The notes: generated by a model not told the origin, from the letters alone. A DNA stretch of 64,000 nucleotides from Candidatus Velthaea sp. (GCA_050012475.1 JBEKHC010000008.1:14387-78386), one strand, 5' to 3'. Shown: positions 32,808 through 47,490, numbered from the stretch's first letter. Numbers and translations are program-made.

Positions 32808-33950
32808 ATGCGGGTAACGATCGTCGGTGCCGGACCGGCCGGCGGGGCTGCGGCGATAACGCTGGCGCGGCACGGCGCGACGGTCCGGCTGCTCGAACGC
32901 AGCGCGTGGCCGCGCGCGAAAACGTGCGGCGACGGGATTTCGCCCGACTCGGTACGGATCGCCACGGAACTCGGCATCGATCTGACCGACCGGCTTGCGC
33001 TCGAAGTCGGGACGATGAGCGCGCCCAGCCGGGCCGCGATATCGAGCGGCTGGCCGGCGGCGACGCCCTGGGGGACGATCGTCGAACGGCGTGACTTCGA
33101 CGCCCGGCTCGTCGACGCCGCGGTCGCGGCCGGCGCCGGATTCGAACCGCGCACGACCGTGCGCGAGATCATCCCGACGGTCGACGGCGCGCGCGTCGGC
33201 GTGCGCGGTGCCAGCGGGGTCGATGCGTGCGAAGACGCCGATGCCGTGCTGTTGGCCGAGGGCGCGACCGGCGGTTTGGGCGCCGCGCTCGGTTTCGGCC
33301 GTCATCGCTCGCGCCTGGTTGCGCTGCGCGGCTACGTCCGCAGCGACATCGATTTGGATGCGGCGTTCGGACTGCACTTCGATGCGAGCGTGGTGCCCGG
33401 TTACGCGTGGATTTTTCCGCTCAGCCGGCGCCACGCCAACGTCGGCATTCTCGTCGACGAGCGTTTCTCGCGTTCGCACGACCTGCGCGGCATTCTCGAT
33501 GGGTGGCTGCGCGACAGCCCGTTCGCTCGTCGCCAATTGGGAAGCCGGCCGGTGGTCGAAGCGATGTCGGGCGGGGTGATCCCGACCGGACGCCGGCGGC
33601 GCACGCACGGCGCGGTGTTCGCCATCGGCGACGCCGCCGGTGTCGCCGATCCCTTTTCCGCTGAAGGCATCGCGCAAGCGATGTCGACCGGGCGGGCCGC
33701 TGCACACGCGCTGATCGCCGCCGGCGGCGACAGCGCCGCCGCCGCACGCAGGTACCGGCGCGCGCTGCGGGCGTTCGACGCGCAGGCCCGCGCTTCGCGG
33801 CGCATGCGTCTGGTCTTCCCCTATGTCGTCGATCCGCTGACGCAACGCGGGGCAATCCGGCCGCGGCTCGCGCACCATCTTTCGAGCGAAGGGTTCTTCC
33901 GCAAGCAATCCGTCGCTGTATTCTTGTGGGGTATCGCTCGCGCATGGTAA
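32808..33950 (+). CDS. Geranylgeranyl reductase-family FAD oxidoreductase
   Basis: IVGAGPAG, PRAKTCGDG, RRDFDARL, GYAWIFP, GDAAGVADPFSAEGI. Confidence 0.9.
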   Translation: MRVTIVGAGPAGGAAAITLARHGATVRLLERSAWPRAKTCGDGISPDSVRIATELGIDLTDRLALEVGTMSAPSRAAISSGWPAATPWGTIVERRDFDARLVDAAVAAGAGFEPRTTVREIIPTVDGARVGVRGASGVDACEDADAVLLAEGATGGLGAALGFGRHRSRLVALRGYVRSDIDLDAAFGLHFDASVVPGYAWIFPLSRRHANVGILVDERFSRSHDLRGILDGWLRDSPFARRQLGSRPVVEAMSGGVIPTGRRRRTHGAVFAIGDAAGVADPFSAEGIAQAMSTGRAAAHALIAAGGDSAAAARRYRRALRAFDAQARASRRMRLVFPYVVDPLTQRGAIRPRLAHHLSSEGFFRKQSVAVFLWGIARAW

Positions 33951-34732
33951 CGCTGAAGAATCGGCTGGCAAAGCTCTTGATCGACCCCACGTTCCGGCAT
34001 CCGGGGCTGCTCAAAGTCGTTTTCTCGATCGATGATGTGACGGGCATCGATCTGGTCAAGACGCTGGCGCCGTTCCGGCTGATGCCCGCGTCACGCAAGC
34101 TGTTCTCGCGGTGCTTCGCGCACTTTGTTTCGGGCGAGGAAATCTCGCTGGCCGCTTCGACGCAGCTCGCGGCGCTCGCCCCGGACCGCGCCGCGCACGA
34201 CTATCTGCTCGTGCAGGCCGGTGAAGAGCGCCGGCATCTCGATCATTTCTGCGATAAGCTGTCGGCGTTCGGATTGGGCGAAACGGAACTCGAGCGTTTT
34301 CTGGCACCGAGTTTTACGGCTTTCGGCGCGGCGATCTCCGAGCGCATCGAGCGCGGCGATTACGTCGCCGGGATTATCGGCAACAACATCGTGGTCGAAG
34401 GCCTAGCGATCTGCCTGCTCGAGCTGGGCTGCGGCGACATGCGGGCCAATTCGGACGAGATCGCGGCCTTCATGGACTTCGTGCTCGAAGACGAACGTCA
34501 TCACGTCCGCTTCGGCGAACGGATGCTCAAGCGGATGAACGAACGCGACCAAATCGACCGAGCGGCCGCCGAGGATTTCTACGGAATCATGTGGCAACTC
34601 GTGCGCAAGGCGATCCACGAGATTCCCGACGTCCTCGATGCGATGGGCCTGGTACCGGCGACGCTGGAACGTGACGTGAAGACGTATTACGATCGCCGCT
34701 TTGCTGCAGCCGGGTTGACGTTCGCCGTCTAA
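33944..34732 (+). CDS. Ferritin-like diiron protein, aldehyde-deformylating oxygenase-like
   Basis: Carboxylate/His ligand pattern GEE..EERRH..VVEG..DERHH. Confidence 0.8.
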   Translation: MVTLKNRLAKLLIDPTFRHPGLLKVVFSIDDVTGIDLVKTLAPFRLMPASRKLFSRCFAHFVSGEEISLAASTQLAALAPDRAAHDYLLVQAGEERRHLDHFCDKLSAFGLGETELERFLAPSFTAFGAAISERIERGDYVAGIIGNNIVVEGLAICLLELGCGDMRANSDEIAAFMDFVLEDERHHVRFGERMLKRMNERDQIDRAAAEDFYGIMWQLVRKAIHEIPDVLDAMGLVPATLERDVKTYYDRRFAAAGLTFAV

Positions 34733-34785
34733 GCTTTCCAGACATCCGGCTTCACTCACCCGAGCCGGGAGCCGATACGTTCGTC

Positions 34786-35052
34786 ATGACGCAGGGACCA
34801 GCGGTCAACGCCTATGTGTTTGCCTTTTTCTTCGCAGCGAGTTTCTTGATCGGCGGAAAACGGCCGATCTTGACGCTCTCGACGCGCGTGCTGCTCGTCG
34901 TCGTGCTCGCGTTCGCGTTCGGTTACGTCCTCAGCGAACACACCGTTTGGCATTCTGTCTTGGGTGCGGCGGCGTTGATCCTCAACTTCGTTTTCATCGG
35001 CTTCGCTTCGATCGACTACTGGAACTGGCACACGGGCAAAGCCTCGCGTTAA
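34786..35052 (+). CDS. Small membrane protein (about 3 TM)
   Basis: 88-aa hydrophobic ORF downstream of the diiron gene. Confidence 0.65.
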   Translation: MTQGPAVNAYVFAFFFAASFLIGGKRPILTLSTRVLLVVVLAFAFGYVLSEHTVWHSVLGAAALILNFVFIGFASIDYWNWHTGKASR

Positions 35053-35445: not shown

Positions 35446-36591
35446 ATGTGGATCGAACAGACGCGGTGGGACGCCGGCGTGGGTTGGCTGTCGAATGCGA
35501 CCTTACCGAACTCGAACGCGGATTTGGTTCTGTACTTTGGCAACCGCGATGCCCTGCGCTGCCCGGATCGGTATGCCGAGCTGCGCGCGGCATATCCCGG
35601 CGCGAAGATCGTCGGCTGCTCCGCGATGCGCAGCATCGTCGGCGATGCCATGCTCGAGAGTGGAATCGTCGCAGTCGCCCTGGGCTTCGCCCGCACGGCG
35701 GTTCGGATCGCCCAGGCGCACGTCGCCGAGCCGTCACGATCGGCGGCTGCCGGCGAAGTGCTCGGAGCAGCGCTGGCTGCCGACGACCTCGTCGGCGTTT
35801 TCGTGCTCGCCGACGGGCTGCGCGTCAACGGCAGCGACGTGACCGCGGGTCTGCACCGGGCTCTCGGAGTCGGGCCGATGGTCATCGGCGGCATGGCCAG
35901 CGATTCGCTGGACTACACCGAAGTGCTCATCGGGGCTGATTGTGCAGCGCGGAGCGGCATGGTTGCGGCGGTCGGCTTTTACGGTGAGGCGATCCGGTTC
36001 ACGCACGGACGGGGCAGCGGTTGGGATGCTTTCGGACCGCGACGGTCGATCACGCGATCGGCGGGCAACGTACTGTACGAGCTCGACGGGAAGTCGGCAT
36101 TCGCGTTGTATCAGCGATACCTCGCCGAGGAGATGAGGGCCGGCATACCGGCGATGGTGTTGTTTCCGCTCGTCGTTTCGCCCCCCGATCATCCGGATGG
36201 TGCGATCGTGCGGGCGAACATCGGCGTCGATGAGGCGACCGGTGCGATGACGTTTGCCGGCAATGTGCCCGAAGGCTGGACCGCGCGCTTGATGCGCGGC
36301 AACATCGAACGGCTGATCCTCGCCTCGGCGGAGGCCGGACGGCAGGCGTGCGCCGCGTCCGCAAAACCCGGGACACAACGTCTGGCACTCATCGTTGGCT
36401 GCGGCGGTCGTCAACTCTTGATGGGGCAGCGCACCGAGGAAGAACTCGAGGCTGCCGGCGCGATGCTCGGCGACACGAAGCGCATCGGATTCTATTCGTA
36501 TGGCGAGATCGCCCCGACGTCTGAGCGCGGCTTATCCGACGTTCACAACCAGACGATGACCATTACGAGCCTCCACGAAGTCGACGACTGA
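35446..36591 (+). CDS. FIST N/C-domain signal transduction protein
   Basis: IVGCS, DGLRVNGS, GGMA, GWDAFGP..ITRS.GNVLYELDG, GFYSYGEI, HNQTMT. Confidence 0.9.
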   Translation: MWIEQTRWDAGVGWLSNATLPNSNADLVLYFGNRDALRCPDRYAELRAAYPGAKIVGCSAMRSIVGDAMLESGIVAVALGFARTAVRIAQAHVAEPSRSAAAGEVLGAALAADDLVGVFVLADGLRVNGSDVTAGLHRALGVGPMVIGGMASDSLDYTEVLIGADCAARSGMVAAVGFYGEAIRFTHGRGSGWDAFGPRRSITRSAGNVLYELDGKSAFALYQRYLAEEMRAGIPAMVLFPLVVSPPDHPDGAIVRANIGVDEATGAMTFAGNVPEGWTARLMRGNIERLILASAEAGRQACAASAKPGTQRLALIVGCGGRQLLMGQRTEEELEAAGAMLGDTKRIGFYSYGEIAPTSERGLSDVHNQTMTITSLHEVDD

Positions 36592-36595
36592 TCGC

Positions 36596-37366
36596 ATGCA
36601 CCCGCTTCTCGAACGGCAAATCGCGCGGGCGACGCGTCCGTCGGGCGACCTCGATGTCGCCGTTCTGCTGCAGCTCGTCGATGCCGCTTATGCGGAATCG
36701 GACCGTGAACGTGAGCGCAACGACCGTGCCGCATTGCTCACCTGCGAAGAGATGGACAAGCTCAACGAGGAGCTGCGCAAACTCGCTCATCACGATATGT
36801 TAACCGGATTGCCGAACCGCCTGGCCTTTGCCGACTTTGTCCGGCGCGCGGCCGGTCGGGCGAAACAGGGTGAACGGTTTGCTATTCTGCTCGTCGATCT
36901 CGACCGCTTCAAAGCCGTCAACGATATGCTTGGCCACGCGATGGGCGACGCGCTGCTATGCGAAGTCGCGGCGCGGCTGCGTCGTGCCGTTCGTGAAGGC
37001 GACCGAGTCGCCCGAATGGGCGGCGATGAGTTTGCAATCCTCGTCGACGGCTCCGGTCTGCCGGAGAGCGCCGAACAGTTGGCGCACCGGCTCGTGCGCT
37101 CGGTGGGTGCGCCTTATGTCATTCGCGGCTGCGCGATGGCGGTCGGCGCGTCCGTCGGAGTCGCCGTTGGCGATCCCGGTGACCATGATCCCGACCTGCT
37201 GTTGCGCAACGCCGACATCGCGCTATATCAGGCGAAGAACGAGGGCCGCAGCACGTGGCGGGTCTACGCTGAGGATGCTGACGGCTGTGCATCCGATGGT
37301 TGGAGCGACTCGGCGTCGGAGGCCTCACCGGATCAAAACCAGACGGCGCTGCTTCCTCCCGCGTAA
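36596..37366 (+). CDS. Diguanylate cyclase (coiled coil + GGDEF)
   Basis: HDMLTGLPNR, DLDRFKAVND..GH..GD, RMGGDEF. Confidence 0.92.
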   Translation: MHPLLERQIARATRPSGDLDVAVLLQLVDAAYAESDRERERNDRAALLTCEEMDKLNEELRKLAHHDMLTGLPNRLAFADFVRRAAGRAKQGERFAILLVDLDRFKAVNDMLGHAMGDALLCEVAARLRRAVREGDRVARMGGDEFAILVDGSGLPESAEQLAHRLVRSVGAPYVIRGCAMAVGASVGVAVGDPGDHDPDLLLRNADIALYQAKNEGRSTWRVYAEDADGCASDGWSDSASEASPDQNQTALLPPA

Positions 37367-37799: not shown

Positions 37800-38903
37800 T
37801 CAGCGCAGCTGGACCCTGCCTAGCGCGGCGAGCAAGGCTGCGCTTTCGGCATCCAAGTGCTGTTCGAATACCTTGGGATGCGTGAGATAGAACAGGCACA
37901 TCGCGCGCAGCACGAAGGCGTGCCATTCGCCGTTCTGCAGCGTGCGCACGCCTGAGGCCGTCGCGGTCAACAATCGCCGCACGCGGCTGACCGCTTCGGC
38001 GCTCGAGGCATAGCAGGCGACGAAATTGAGTTCGCGGTGTTCGCGGTCTTCGGCCTGATCGATGAAATAATCGAGCAGGATGTGCACGGCCGAGAGATTG
38101 GGAAAATACGCCGCGGTGGTCAGGTCGACCGCGTCGGGCGCCACGGTCTTTTGCGAGGCCAAATGCAGCAGCGCGAAGACCGGCATCGAGGAACCGCAGG
38201 CGGCGGCGAACTCCCACCAATACAGGTCCGGGAAGCGTTCGCGATTGCGTTCGTACCAAGCGTCGCAGTAGGCTGCGCCGGCTTTGGGTCCGGCATGTTT
38301 GAACGTCTGCAGTTGGGCGTAGTAGCCGGCGATCTCGACGAGCTGCGCGCGCACGGCGCCATAATTGGGCAAGGCGCCGATTCCGGCGCGCACGCACTCG
38401 ACGAGCCGGCGCAAATAGCCGCCGTCGTCGCGCGCCGGGCCGTCGCGATAATAATCGCCGATCGAGCGGCGATCGTCGAGCGCATCCAGCAACGCTTCGT
38501 GCAGCGTCGGATAGGCGGCGGCGGGAACGTTCGGCAAGCGATCGCACAGGTTGTCGAGGTAGTCGTAGATGGTTTCGAGCGGCGCGACGATGTCGACGTA
38601 CCGCGCGGCCGCCTCGCCGTGCAAAAAGGTCGCGAGAATGCAGCCGCCTTGCACGTGATAGGCCTTGTCGGAGATCGAGGCGGTGGCTTGTTCGCGCAGG
38701 GCGCGGTCGGGGATGGTGCGCGCGTCGACTTCGATTGCGCGCAGCACGCGCGACGCGCGCGGCACCACCGCGGTGAGAAAGCGGGCCATCGACGCCAAAC
38801 CGCGCGGACCCAAGCCCAGCAGGCGGCGCAGCCGGGTCGGCGTGCGCAGCACGGTGCGCACGACGGTGTCGACGTCGCGCAGCAGCGAGCGATCAGATCC
38901 CAC
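37800..38903 (-). CDS. Tetraprenyl-beta-curcumene synthase family (YtpB/DUF2600) terpene synthase
   Basis: KAYHVQGG, TIYDYLDNLCDR, DDGGYL, WWEFAAACGS, HILLDYFIDQAED..LNF. Confidence 0.88.
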   Translation of the reverse strand: MGSDRSLLRDVDTVVRTVLRTPTRLRRLLGLGPRGLASMARFLTAVVPRASRVLRAIEVDARTIPDRALREQATASISDKAYHVQGGCILATFLHGEAAARYVDIVAPLETIYDYLDNLCDRLPNVPAAAYPTLHEALLDALDDRRSIGDYYRDGPARDDGGYLRRLVECVRAGIGALPNYGAVRAQLVEIAGYYAQLQTFKHAGPKAGAAYCDAWYERNRERFPDLYWWEFAAACGSSMPVFALLHLASQKTVAPDAVDLTTAAYFPNLSAVHILLDYFIDQAEDREHRELNFVACYASSAEAVSRVRRLLTATASGVRTLQNGEWHAFVLRAMCLFYLTHPKVFEQHLDAESAALLAALGRVQLR

Positions 38904-44503: not shown

Positions 44504-45097
44504 ATGGCCGACCTGGCCCGCGAAAACGCCCGGTTGCAGCGCGAACTCGCGGAGCTCAAAGCGAAATACGCCCGGCTTGCCGAGGATGCCGCCGACCAGG
44601 CTGCGGAGTCCGAGCGGTTCCATCATTTGGCGCTTCACGATGCGCTTACGCAGTTGCCGAATCGCTTGCTGTTGATGGACCGGATCGCCGCGGCGCTTGC
44701 GCACGCCGAGCGCGCAGGCACCCAGGTGCTGGTGATCTTCTTGGATCTCGATCATTTCAAAGCGATCAACGACATCATGGGCCATGCCGCCGGCGACCGG
44801 GTGCTTAGCGAAGTTGCGATCCGCATCGCGGGCTGCACGCGCCGCAGTGATACGGCCAGCCGCGTCGGCGGCGATGAATTCGTGCTGGTATGCGCGACCG
44901 AGGATGCCGTCGCCGACGCCGCCGATATCCGCTCGCGGTTAGGCCGTGCGATCGCCGCCCCGATCGACGTCAACGGCACGCCGGTAACGATCGGCGCGAG
45001 CATCGGCATCAGTTCGTTTCCGGCCGACGGCGCAGATCCGGGCGAACTCATCGATCGCGCCGATCAGGCCATGTATCACGTCAAGGCGCGCCGTTAA
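44504..45097 (+). CDS. Diguanylate cyclase (short coiled coil + GGDEF)
   Basis: HDALTQLPNR, DLDHFKAIND, RSD I-site (RxxD), RVGGDEF; start uncertain. Confidence 0.88.
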   Translation: MADLARENARLQRELAELKAKYARLAEDAADQAAESERFHHLALHDALTQLPNRLLLMDRIAAALAHAERAGTQVLVIFLDLDHFKAINDIMGHAAGDRVLSEVAIRIAGCTRRSDTASRVGGDEFVLVCATEDAVADAADIRSRLGRAIAAPIDVNGTPVTIGASIGISSFPADGADPGELIDRADQAMYHVKARR

Positions 45098-45921
45098 ACG
45101 AACGACGGCGTTGCGGCCGGCGGAATGAGTCCGGCGGCGGCGGCGCGCGTGAAGAGCTCGTTGACCGCGGCGATCCCCGCCGATCCGACATCGTCGCTGT
45201 ATTCGTTCACATACAAGCCGATGTGAGCGCGCATGACGGCGTCGTCCATCTCGAAAGCGTGGGCCCGCACGTAGTCGATGATCTCCGGCTCGCGGGTGCG
45301 GGCGAACTGCAGGCTGCGCCGGATCGACGCATCGATGCGGCGTGCCGCAGCGTCGTCGATGTCGCGGCGAACGAGGATCGCCCCGAGCGGGATCGGATCG
45401 CCGGTGGCTGCTTCCCACCAGTCGCCCAAATCCACGACGCACGCTAGGCCCGCCTCGGCATAGGTGAAGCGCGATTCGTGGATGATAAGGCCGGCGTCGG
45501 CTTCGCCGGCGGCGACCGCCGCGACGATGGCGTCGAAACGCACCACCTTCACCTGCGGTTCGCGCCCGAGCGCAAGCCGCAGCAGCAGATACGCCGTCGT
45601 CATCCGGCCCGGGATCGCGAACACTGCGTCGGCGTCGAAGCTCGCGAGGCCGCGGGCCGTTTTCGCGACCACGAGCGGGCCGCAGCCGCGTCCCAATGCT
45701 CCGCCCGCGCGCAGGATCCGGTACGCTGCCGACAAGAACGGGATCGCGCCGTACGAGACCTTCGTGAGCTCGTGGCGGCTCTCGCGGGCCGCGCGGTTGA
45801 GCGCCTCGACGTCATCGAGCACGACCCGAACCGCGGGCTCCCCGGGCAACAACCCGTTGGTCAGCGCCGCGAAAATGTAGGTGTCGTTGGGGCAGGGCGA
45901 ATAGGCCAGCGAATACATCAT
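45094..45921 (-). CDS. mqnD: 1,4-dihydroxy-6-naphthoate synthase
   Basis: YSPCPNDT, DVEALN, GGALGRGCGP, IIHESRFTY, PIPLG, HIGLYVN. Confidence 0.95.
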   Translation of the reverse strand: MMYSLAYSPCPNDTYIFAALTNGLLPGEPAVRVVLDDVEALNRAARESRHELTKVSYGAIPFLSAAYRILRAGGALGRGCGPLVVAKTARGLASFDADAVFAIPGRMTTAYLLLRLALGREPQVKVVRFDAIVAAVAAGEADAGLIIHESRFTYAEAGLACVVDLGDWWEAATGDPIPLGAILVRRDIDDAAARRIDASIRRSLQFARTREPEIIDYVRAHAFEMDDAVMRAHIGLYVNEYSDDVGSAGIAAVNELFTRAAAAGLIPPAATPSFV

Positions 45922-46529
45922 GTGGTTTCTTCGACGGCGGTCAGGAAGTCGGTCAGCGCGCGGACAGCGGCGGTCGAGCCGGCCCGAAAATCCCAGCCGC
46001 CGATCGGGTCGCCGACGATATTGGAAATGCCGCGCAATTCGACTGCGGCGACGCCCGCGACCGCAGCGGCGCGCAGCACCGAAAAGCCCTCCATCGATTC
46101 GGTCTCGGGCGCGTAGCGAGTCGCCAATTCGGCGCTGCGGGCCGCCGAGGTCGTGATTGTCGCCGAAGTGATGCCGGTGCCGAAAACGGCTTTCGGCAAG
46201 CGTGACCGATAGCGTTCGAGCAGTCCGGCGTCAGCCGCGCACGTCGCTTCGACGCGCACTCCGGGGGGCAGCACGATTGCCCCGCCGTCTTCCCGCCCGA
46301 TCTCCAGATAGCGCTCGACGGTTACCGCGACGGCGCTGCCGATCGGCGCGCGGCCCGCGAAACCGCCGGCGATGCCGGCGTTGATCGCCAACGCATACGG
46401 TTTGGCGGCGAGCGCGCGCAGCGTGCCAAGCGCCGCTTCGACCGGTCCGATACCGACGCACACGACGTCGACGTCGGGCCGGGCGAAGCCGTCGAGTTCC
46501 TCCGCCACCGCACAGACGACGAGGATCAT
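45918..46529 (-). CDS. mqnB: Futalosine hydrolase
   Basis: GIGPVEAA, NAGIAGGF, ESMEGF, ELRGISN.VG..W; adjacent to mqnD. Confidence 0.88.
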   Translation of the reverse strand: MILVVCAVAEELDGFARPDVDVVCVGIGPVEAALGTLRALAAKPYALAINAGIAGGFAGRAPIGSAVAVTVERYLEIGREDGGAIVLPPGVRVEATCAADAGLLERYRSRLPKAVFGTGITSATITTSAARSAELATRYAPETESMEGFSVLRAAAVAGVAAVELRGISNIVGDPIGGWDFRAGSTAAVRALTDFLTAVEETT

Positions 46530-47101
46530 CGCACGCCGATGAATTTGTGCGTTTGCAGCGAGAGCCGAAAGCGCGCCGGGTTGTTCTTGGCGGCAGCCAG
46601 CGCGAGCTCGACGTTGGCCGCTTTGTTGCCCTCGGGCTGCAGCGCAATCGGGGTCGTGGCCGGAAATGCGTCGACCCATTCGACCGGGACGCGGCCGTCG
46701 ACGATGAGCTTGACCTCGTCGGCGCGCGCCGCCATCGCCGGATGTAGCCGTTCCTTCGGCGATACCGTCAGCCAAACGCCGGCGGGAAGCACGACGTCGA
46801 TCGTGCCGTTCGTTTCGATGTGCACCCGCCGGCCGTCGGCCTGCAATGCGGCGATCAGCGCCGGCGTCTGCGTTTGGGCCAACGGTTCGCCGCCGGTCAG
46901 CACGACCATCGGGCAGTCGCCGCCGGCGGCGCGAACCTGCGCCACCACGTCCGGAATTGCGGCCAGAAAGTGCAGCGCGTAATCCGTGTCGCAAAAATCG
47001 CAGGCCAGATTGCAGCCTGCCAGCCGCACGAAGACCGCCGGGGTCCCGGTCCACGCCCCCTCGCCCTGCACGCTGTAAAAGATCTCCGCGAGGCCGAGCA
47101 T
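46526..47101 (-). CDS. queE: 7-carboxy-7-deazaguanine synthase (radical SAM)
   Basis: EIFYSVQGEG, RLAGCNLACDFCDT, TGGEP, ETNG, SPK, LQP, SLQTHK. Confidence 0.95.
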   Translation of the reverse strand: MLGLAEIFYSVQGEGAWTGTPAVFVRLAGCNLACDFCDTDYALHFLAAIPDVVAQVRAAGGDCPMVVLTGGEPLAQTQTPALIAALQADGRRVHIETNGTIDVVLPAGVWLTVSPKERLHPAMAARADEVKLIVDGRVPVEWVDAFPATTPIALQPEGNKAANVELALAAAKNNPARFRLSLQTHKFIGVR

Positions 47102-47103
47102 CG

Positions 47104-47490
47104 TCACTCGGGGTCCAACGGCGCGGCCAGCGGGTCGCCGCGGCGCAGGATCGCGCAGGCCGTCGCCGTCTCCCACAGCACGAGTTCGACCAGTTGGGGA
47201 AACTCGGGCGCCAGCCGCCGCCAGATCCAAACGACGACGTTTTCGGAGGTCGGGTTGGGCACGACTTCATTGAGCGAGCGATGGTCGAGTTCGCCGATGA
47301 CGCCGGCCTTCACGACCCGCGAGAGGGCCTCGAAGTCGACGATCATGCCGGCCGCCGGACCGTCATCGGCCAGCGGGCCCTCCAGGGTGACGTCGAGCCG
47401 ATACGAGTGGCCGTGAAGTCGCGAACATTTGCCCTGATGGTACGGCAGCACGTGCGCTGCCTCAAATTTGAACTGCTTGCGGATCTGCAC
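47104..47490 (-). CDS. queD: 6-carboxytetrahydropterin synthase
   Basis: FEAAH..KCSRLHGHSY, LDHRSLN, PTSEN, WET. Confidence 0.95.
   Translation of the reverse strand: MQIRKQFKFEAAHVLPYHQGKCSRLHGHSYRLDVTLEGPLADDGPAAGMIVDFEALSRVVKAGVIGELDHRSLNEVVPNPTSENVVVWIWRRLAPEFPQLVELVLWETATACAILRRGDPLAAPLDPE

Follow-up and report, generated by a model that had tools for sequence, protein, structure and literature searches.

Shared distribution and a shared promoter box point to a probable role in bacteriochlorophyll-precursor synthesis for a ferritin-like diiron protein of phototrophic Vulcanimicrobiota

AcsF is a ferritin-like diiron enzyme that acts on a porphyrin propionate, and UndA is a diiron decarboxylase that makes terminal alkenes from carboxylates. 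Bacteriochlorophyll requires protoporphyrin IX, which is reached via HemF or HemN, the described protoporphyrinogen-forming enzymes; HemF (CgdC) is metal-free and HemN (CgdH) is a radical-SAM enzyme (PMC7242693; papers given by PMC number are cited for the passages of them that were available). VlmB is an azoxy synthase (PMC11705231), and the diiron ligands of the aldehyde-deformylating oxygenase (ADO) SeADO are E32/E60/H63/E115/E144/H147 (PMC4286721). Phototrophs of the Vulcanimicrobiota (Eremiobacterota) have bacteriochlorophyll a, unidentified carotenoids and lipids, and photosynthesis genes scattered over the genome (PMC9758169, in part), and therefore unknown members of this gene set cannot be found by clustering. 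Here, we describe two adjacent genes in a 64,000-nucleotide stretch of Candidatus Velthaea sp. (GCA_050012475.1 JBEKHC010000008.1:14387-78386), called the window below; its genome is G000, and other G and L numbers denote genomes and loci of relatives. A preliminary description had reported two open reading frames overlapping by 7 bp, one for a geranylgeranyl reductase (GGR)-like flavoprotein and one for an ADO-like diiron protein, and both are present:

32808..33950, + strand: GGR-family FAD reductase, 380 aa, assigned from a TIGR02032 score above the cut-off, its distribution and its tree.
33944..34732, + strand: ferritin-like diiron-carboxylate protein, 262 aa, with an ADO-like helical core (about residues 44-262) and a basic, conserved N-terminal extension.
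33944..33950, + strand: 7-bp overlap (ATGGTAA) of the two reading frames, which marks a lost spacer of 53-91 bp.

The distribution of the two genes was determined in 301 Vulcanimicrobiota genomes, ten of which are flagged as unpublished and enter only the 301-genome tallies. pufLM is present in 26 genomes. A close homologue of the diiron gene was found in 17 genomes (two more have weak matches) and the GGR subfamily, at a threshold of E<1e-70 and among the best six candidates scored in each genome, in 18; all 17 and all 18 are pufLM-positive, and neither gene was found in the 275 non-phototroph genomes. The genomes with the diiron gene are those of Vulcanimicrobiaceae that bear a reaction centre. 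Nine of the 26 phototrophs are without the diiron gene. Two of the 19 g2 genomes are phototrophic, one with both genes and the other with GGR. In all 11 non-phototroph g2 loci examined the pair is missing from its chromosomal slot with the flanking genes intact, as it is in G283, and the phototrophs G011 and G145 carry the diiron gene in that slot. The diiron gene is likewise present in the phototroph of g32 and not in the non-phototroph. A profile search of 25 genomes found only the two known carriers of the diiron gene (0/14 non-phototrophs and 0/9 other phototrophs). Since two of the five non-phototroph g2 genomes tested (G053 and G099) keep a crtP-like gene and cruF without the pair, the pair stands outside general carotenoid synthesis. 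Taken together, these results show that the diiron gene and the GGR subfamily are very probably linked to photosynthesis.

Upstream of the diiron gene, a GT[AG][AG]-N6-T[CT]AC box was found in 50 of 52 assessable loci (42 distinct sites) compared to 1.1% of shuffles, also where GGR is absent; in G011 the box has the reverse orientation. A -10-like hexamer lies 22-25 nt past the box in 43 loci, a shape and spacing that we take to be those of a class II Crp/Fnr promoter. Box and hexamer lie in the 53-91 bp spacer of the relatives and are deleted in the copy in the window. When a matrix trained only on the diiron-gene sites was applied to 4591 upstream regions of G000, hemA ranked 1, bchM-acsF 3, bchH 8, bchF 16, bchN 17 and bchL 37 (three of these operon names were checked on G293 orthologues). 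In contrast, carotenoid genes ranked low (crtD 627, crtP 962, cruG 3901). Five of the seven perfect non-coding GGTGA-N6-TCACC sites in G000 precede bch operons, and all six perfect sites in G292 (6/6) fall between pufL and acsF, in the stretch from 498 to 607 kb. The box also precedes bch genes in three other genomes (G011, G145 and G293) and pufB in a further two (G045 and G130). A Crp-family gene lies directly after pufC in G000 (C88:7443-8123), G145, G217 and G293, with orthologues at L309 and L311-L313, and Crp-family genes lie within the photosynthesis clusters of the other three genomes examined. These results show that in relatives the diiron gene shares a predicted regulon box with bacteriochlorophyll operons and not with carotenoid operons, and they make the box and the Crp-family gene a candidate photosynthesis regulon of the Vulcanimicrobiota.

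Bacteriochlorophyll synthesis in these genomes has a gap at the protoporphyrin step. AcsF was found in all 26 phototrophs, HemF in only three, and HemN over the cut-off in none of the 26 (best score 149.8, cut-off 324.95); 23 of the 26 have neither HemF nor an above-cut-off HemN, and the same holds for 16 of the 17 diiron carriers. Two of the HemF-bearing phototrophs are without the diiron gene, and the third is G000, in which the box is lost. In G000, HemF lies in a four-gene operon (G000:C14:35539-39888) that was not found in three genomes of the same genus and whose other genes, from their sequence features, we take to be hemE, hemH and hemY. HemQ is a mark of the coproporphyrin heme route, and a HemQ-family gene is present in four of five genomes tested, with no match in G000 only.

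Judged from these sequence comparisons, the diiron protein is likely an O2-dependent enzyme of bacteriochlorophyll-precursor synthesis. Because HemF and HemN are missing in most carriers and the box is lost in the HemF-bearing G000, we propose a propionate-to-vinyl decarboxylase, that is, an O2-dependent coproporphyrinogen oxidative decarboxylase of a new kind, which would convert coproporphyrinogen III to protoporphyrinogen IX; we put the probability of this at roughly 0.38. In genomes without HemF and HemN, the enzyme would form the vinyl groups from the propionate side chains. Its diferrous centre would activate O2, take a hydrogen from the propionate and free CO2, the conserved Arg and Lys residues of the N-terminal extension would hold the porphyrin carboxylates, and a ferredoxin-type donor would recycle the enzyme; the product of the Crp-family gene after pufC may read the box. 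The reaction would be that of HemF and HemN (propionate to vinyl plus CO2) and, as with HemF, O2-dependent, a likeness of function in proteins that have no sequence or fold relation to the diiron protein. AcsF would be a precedent for a ferritin-like site that can reach a porphyrin side chain, and UndA one for the decarboxylation of a carboxylate at a diiron site.

Several results weigh against the decarboxylase. The exclusion of HemF and the diiron gene is not significant (1/16/2/7, p 0.27), the diiron gene is intact in G000 despite HemF, and HemQ was sampled in five genomes only. Seven of the 26 phototrophs (G045, G105, G126, G130, G139, G217 and G274), six of them 95-97% complete, have none of HemF, above-cut-off HemN and the diiron gene. 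A further protoporphyrin route is therefore implied, and it could serve all phototrophs, perhaps by way of HemW-like radical-SAM genes (108-150 bits) or of a heme-derived route. As for the box in G000, pufB ranks only 1801, the region upstream of GGR is without a box (rank 4108), the six top operons were identified only once the ranking was known, and spacers of other lengths yield 0-5 palindromes outside coding sequence. The acyl channel of ADO, the closest fold among solved structures, is narrow. In addition, the counts overstate independence, as the genomes and loci are related and some are duplicates.

The diiron ligands of the protein are E65, E95, H98, E152, E184 and H187, all six of which align with those of SeADO (PMC4286721, in part). 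They form two motifs of the E-x(28-29)-E-x-x-H type, with spacings of 29 and 31, and are retained in 39-40 of 40 family rows (one frameshifted row was excluded, and one further deviating row is probably a frameshifted fragment), which confirms the full ligand set claimed earlier. H60, Q91, E94, H101, N147, N148 and H186 are conserved as well; His60, Gln91, Glu94, His101 and His186, which take the place of apolar or small residues of ADO, occur in 39-40 of the 40 rows. The R2/R2lox-like second sphere Q-x-x-E-E-x-x-H is invariant, and hydrophobic pocket residues near the metal are retained. The N-terminus has about 43 additional residues of basic character, and seven Arg/Lys within residues 5-56 are kept in 38-40 rows. 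The predicted model (pLDDT 87.5) gave a Foldseek TM of 0.66 to ADO. After VIA-align rescoring of Foldseek's 1000 best chains, ADO was the closest among these (Z 24.5, rmsd 2.5 over 207/215 residues, about 20% identity), compared to Z 20.4 for R2lox and 18.7 for a VlmB homologue. The family is tight, with about 100 clusters that, where labelled, belong to Vulcanimicrobiaceae or Eremiobacteraeota, and it forms its own clade (support 1.00) with one 41%-identical relative. It is apparently an undescribed ferritin-like enzyme, a new family in a known superfamily. Three other types were ruled out: class I R2, as Phe (F102, 40/40 rows) stands where we take the radical Tyr to be; the AurF type, as Val180 stands where its extra His presumably lies; and AOX/PTOX, as the ligand spacing is unlike the pattern of these enzymes.

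ADO (PF11266, TIGR04059; PDB 4rc5/4rc6) and the diiron protein share the helical ferritin-like core and the six ligands. The resemblance seen by eye in the preliminary description is therefore real as to fold, but it is weak in sequence (phmmer E 1.4e-4 to ADO among PDB sequences) and below the cut-offs of both models, at 22.5 vs 222.65 for TIGR04059 and 22.3 vs 28 for PF11266 (Ald_deCOase). In contrast to ADO, the diiron protein has the basic N-terminal segment, His60, Gln91, Glu94, His101 and His186 in place of apolar residues, and no adjacent acyl-ACP reductase (AAR), and its host is an anoxygenic phototroph whereas ADO is cyanobacterial. From the available channel-residue list of PMC5007808, 13 of 17 ADO residues were mapped by hand from HMMER alignments: four are identical (G31, F67, F87, A118), five are other hydrophobic residues and four are changed (I24 to C/S, I27 to H, F86 to S/N, Y125 to G), with the invariant His60 in place of Ile27 and Phe61 in place of Val28. 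Neither the HMM scores nor the channel residues thus place the diiron protein among the ADOs. In sequence it comes closest to VlmB-like proteins (P0113, 37% over residues 60-202; P0113 to 6d9f/8wvr, E 5.9e-18), and the direct match of the diiron profile to VlmB is weak and covers positions 74-153 only (E 0.005). The protein shares the motifs Q-x-x-[DE]-E-x-x-H and N-x-x-x-E-G with VlmB and VlmB-like proteins (PDB 8wvr, 6d9f; Z 18.6-18.7), to which it is related via an intermediate group; however, the N-terminal W-L..G-Y-L segment of VlmB is replaced, and the diiron family is its own clade. No azoxy- or hydrazine-forming neighbours (VlmO, VlmA) were seen in the neighbour clustering of 58 loci, for which no dedicated profile search was made. 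The R2lox model PRK08326, the other family suggested for an HMM check, did not match the diiron protein, and two homologues reached 20-23 bits against 194. The AcsF model TIGR02029 did not match it either. AcsF has its own gene in every phototroph; it is likewise a ferritin-like diiron enzyme and in the same putative regulon, as bchM-acsF carries the box.

In the outgroup loci (L071-L133, L175-L213; for example L074:7851-9789), two VlmB-like diiron genes that are paralogues of each other (about 295 and 260 aa) stand with a gene for a 100-aa CxxC..CxxC protein, often near hemerythrin-, globin-, HemN- or P450-like genes. This unit was found in 61 of 102 loci, in Myxococcota, Binatia, Acidimicrobiia, Spirochaetaceae and other metagenome-assembled genomes, and no GGR was found beside the diiron genes in the 102 loci (two apparent matches look like FixC). 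The three genes possibly encode a heterodimeric oxygenase, so far undescribed, and an electron carrier dedicated to it. In P0167, an arsenite-methyltransferase-like domain is fused to an Ald_deCOase domain (52.7 bits, above the Pfam cut-off).

Of 56 loci used to compare the neighbourhood, 54 were assessable (two were too short, and several are near-duplicates). GGR lies upstream of the diiron gene in 47 of these 54, which makes it a conserved neighbour, and the diiron gene stands without GGR in the other seven and in G011. The GGR subfamily is present in 16 of the 17 diiron genomes, and in the remaining one GGR is cut by a contig end; no close diiron homologue was found in the GGR-bearing G274 and G299 (89% and 82% complete). 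Among 45 GGR/diiron junctions, two overlap, 42 have a spacer of 53-91 bp and one has 1284 bp; the overlap is therefore a local deletion, and coupling by overlap is not conserved. An assembly error was ruled out as well, because contigs from three other studies (runs X2, X3 and X4) bridge the junction with no listed difference there. RNA run X19 gave one 230-base contig (34593-34822 only), too little to read expression, and the prediction of a GGR-diiron complex scored 0.00, which is evidence neither way. An obligate coupled module is thus not supported, since in relatives the diiron gene has its own predicted promoter and each gene occurs without the other; GGR is likely a neighbour rather than an obligate partner of the diiron enzyme. 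The absence of AAR noted earlier holds for the locus, with none among the recurring neighbours of 58 loci, but not for the genome: a distant AAR-like gene lies on another contig (G000:C15:46221-47330; 80.6 bits, cut-off 449.7), and such a gene is present in 293 of the 301 genomes, almost always in single copy and without tracking the diiron gene or the pair. No recurring biosynthetic-cluster neighbours were found across the 58 loci.

The GGR protein scored 170.4 bits against TIGR02032 (cut-off 158.8) and stayed below the cut-offs of the BchP model TIGR02023 (106.7 vs 343.3), the MenJ model NF045655 (95.2 vs 700) and the archaeal models. The motifs GxGxxG, KxCGDG, PGYxWxFP and GDAAG are invariant in 29 GGR rows. 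The subfamily belongs to the same TIGR02032 family as BchP, MenJ and CruI (BchO) and is phototroph-specific, as CruI is. In a tree without any CruI sequence it forms its own clade (support 0.98) that is not sister to BchP, and true BchP is another gene of G000 (399 bits). Replacement of AcsF or BchP by the pair was ruled out, as both exist as separate genes. By analogy, the GGR protein is likely a C=C reductase that belongs to the same pigment programme but is transcribed separately; it may act on the 8-vinyl group, a pigment tail or a carotenoid end. COR is also able to reduce the 8-vinyl group (PMC7242693, in part). A BciB-type domain was found in 0/26 phototrophs and was uninformative as a complementary marker. 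Five phototrophs without this subfamily and without the diiron gene (G045, G105, G126, G130 and G139) carry a different GGR-family gene in two copies, the second near puf; their photosynthesis regions (for example L300:10249-11436) have a longer PufL match, and puf operons are repeated in four of the five. At one of 12 GGR paralogue loci (L043:5012-8921), rhodopsin-, lycopene cyclase- and blh-like genes converge on the paralogue, which has an upstream box. G000 also has a cyanobacteria-type carotenoid kit (C88:1510-3742, C50:7951-10684, C27:19005-20450) with CrtP-like, CrtB, CruG, CruF and CrtD-like genes, in which one PDS/ZDS-like desaturase and no CrtI over the cut-off were found.

A larger scheme would make the diiron protein a third, ferritin-like class of coproporphyrinogen decarboxylase, with a Crp-type photosynthesis regulator that the literature covered does not describe, heme made by the coproporphyrin route and GGR as a new, possibly 8-vinyl, pigment C=C reductase; aerobic phototrophs that make heme by that route would then branch off protoporphyrin for bacteriochlorophyll. 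We regard this whole as doubtful. Isoprenoid tailoring in the photosystem is an unlikely alternative explanation, in which GGR would saturate a psi-end or prenyl bond as CruI does and the diiron enzyme would oxidise a methyl or methylene group of an antenna carotenoid, pigment tail or quinone. The frequent company of GGR and the retained hydrophobic pocket are consistent with it, CruI is a BchP paralogue that reduces carotenoid 1,2-bonds (PMC6166724, in part), and passages of PMC8342508 and PMC10604819 leave the C19/C20 oxidases of gemmatoxanthin and rhodopinal unidentified. However, the box marks tetrapyrrole operons and not crt genes in G000, GGR and the diiron gene occur apart in several lineages, and their upstream signals differ. 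Because cruF-cruG occur without the diiron gene in G045 and G130, the diiron protein was ruled out as the required oscillol/myxol 2-hydroxylase. Of the preliminary claim of an undescribed lipid/isoprenoid tailoring module, there remain an undescribed ADO-fold diiron enzyme and its conserved GGR neighbour, and not an obligate lipid-tailoring unit, as channel residues are only partly kept and the nearest sequence relatives are VlmB-like.

The box and the distribution would also fit another role in bacteriochlorophyll synthesis, either with the AcsF cyclase, as its helper or second subunit, or as an O2 or peroxide scavenger that guards O2-sensitive Bch reductases. The invariant R2/R2lox-like second sphere favours such a role, and heteromeric use has a precedent in the outgroup, where a paralogous diiron pair usually stands with the small CxxC protein; we nevertheless consider it improbable, as nine of the 26 phototrophs with AcsF do without the diiron gene and the box loss in a HemF-bearing genome would go unexplained. 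An ADO analogue that turns fatty or phytyl aldehydes into hydrocarbons of the photosynthetic membrane, fed in trans by the AAR-like reductase, agrees with the best structural match and with the wide presence of AAR-like genes; in cyanobacteria, alkanes influence photosynthetic electron flow at low temperature (PMC4602277, in part), and the PDB title of the VlmB homologue 6d9f names ADO activity. The missed ADO cut-offs, the altered channel with its invariant His60 and Phe61, and a low-scoring AAR-like gene that does not follow the diiron gene make this analogue quite unlikely. Least probable by far is a VlmB-like N-oxidase or other non-photosynthetic function, with the overlap with phototrophy due to shared ancestry: the nearest sequence relatives are indeed VlmB-like, but the box held in common with bch genes, the empty slots within genera, the lack of recurring biosynthetic-cluster neighbours in 58 loci and the replaced N-terminal segment all speak against it.

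The gene after the pair is:

34786..35052, + strand: predicted hydrophobic membrane protein, 88 aa, a bystander.

The small membrane protein reported downstream is therefore there, but it is not part of a unit with the pair. It is present in only 10 of 58 in-group loci and was ruled out as a third subunit, as 10 of 11 pufLM-negative g2 loci retain it although the pair is absent. FIST-domain and GGDEF genes (35446-37366, + strand), not seen there in the relatives examined, are inserted between this gene and a DUF2600 gene (37800-38903, - strand). DUF2600 is found in 131 of the 301 genomes yet missing from pair-bearing g3 genomes, and it was thus ruled out as a partner; we take it to be related to the Bacillus sesquarterpene synthase YtpB, and it suggests C35 terpene synthesis in the class. 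A partial phytoene-dehydrogenase-like flavoprotein gene (1-696, - strand) has a 37% relative in the photosynthesis region of G045 and G130. The gene run at 45094-47490 (- strand) is syntenic across the family, and its genes look like mqnD, mqnB, queE and queD, names that we assume from sequence features.

No description of the GGR/diiron pair, the box or a diiron coproporphyrinogen oxidase was found in the literature covered, which leaves out most subscription journals. Nothing on the pair appears in the available parts of PMC6664022, PMC9743570, PMC11857680, PMC12154687, PMC12654162 and PMC12093961, and, as far as they were available, the six supplements of PMC9758169 name no ferritin-like gene. 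The phototrophic Vulcanimicrobiota are a recently found branch of anoxygenic phototrophs. The candidate box gives a handle on their scattered regulon and adds two uncharacterised enzymes to it, and the analysis exposes a pathway hole, with both known protoporphyrinogen-forming enzymes missing from 23 of 26 phototrophs. If the proposed decarboxylase is correct, a central step of tetrapyrrole synthesis would gain a new class of enzyme, and the ADO/VlmB branch of the ferritin-like proteins a chemistry new to it; if it is not, the diiron protein would still be a photosynthesis-linked relative of ADO outside the cyanobacteria.

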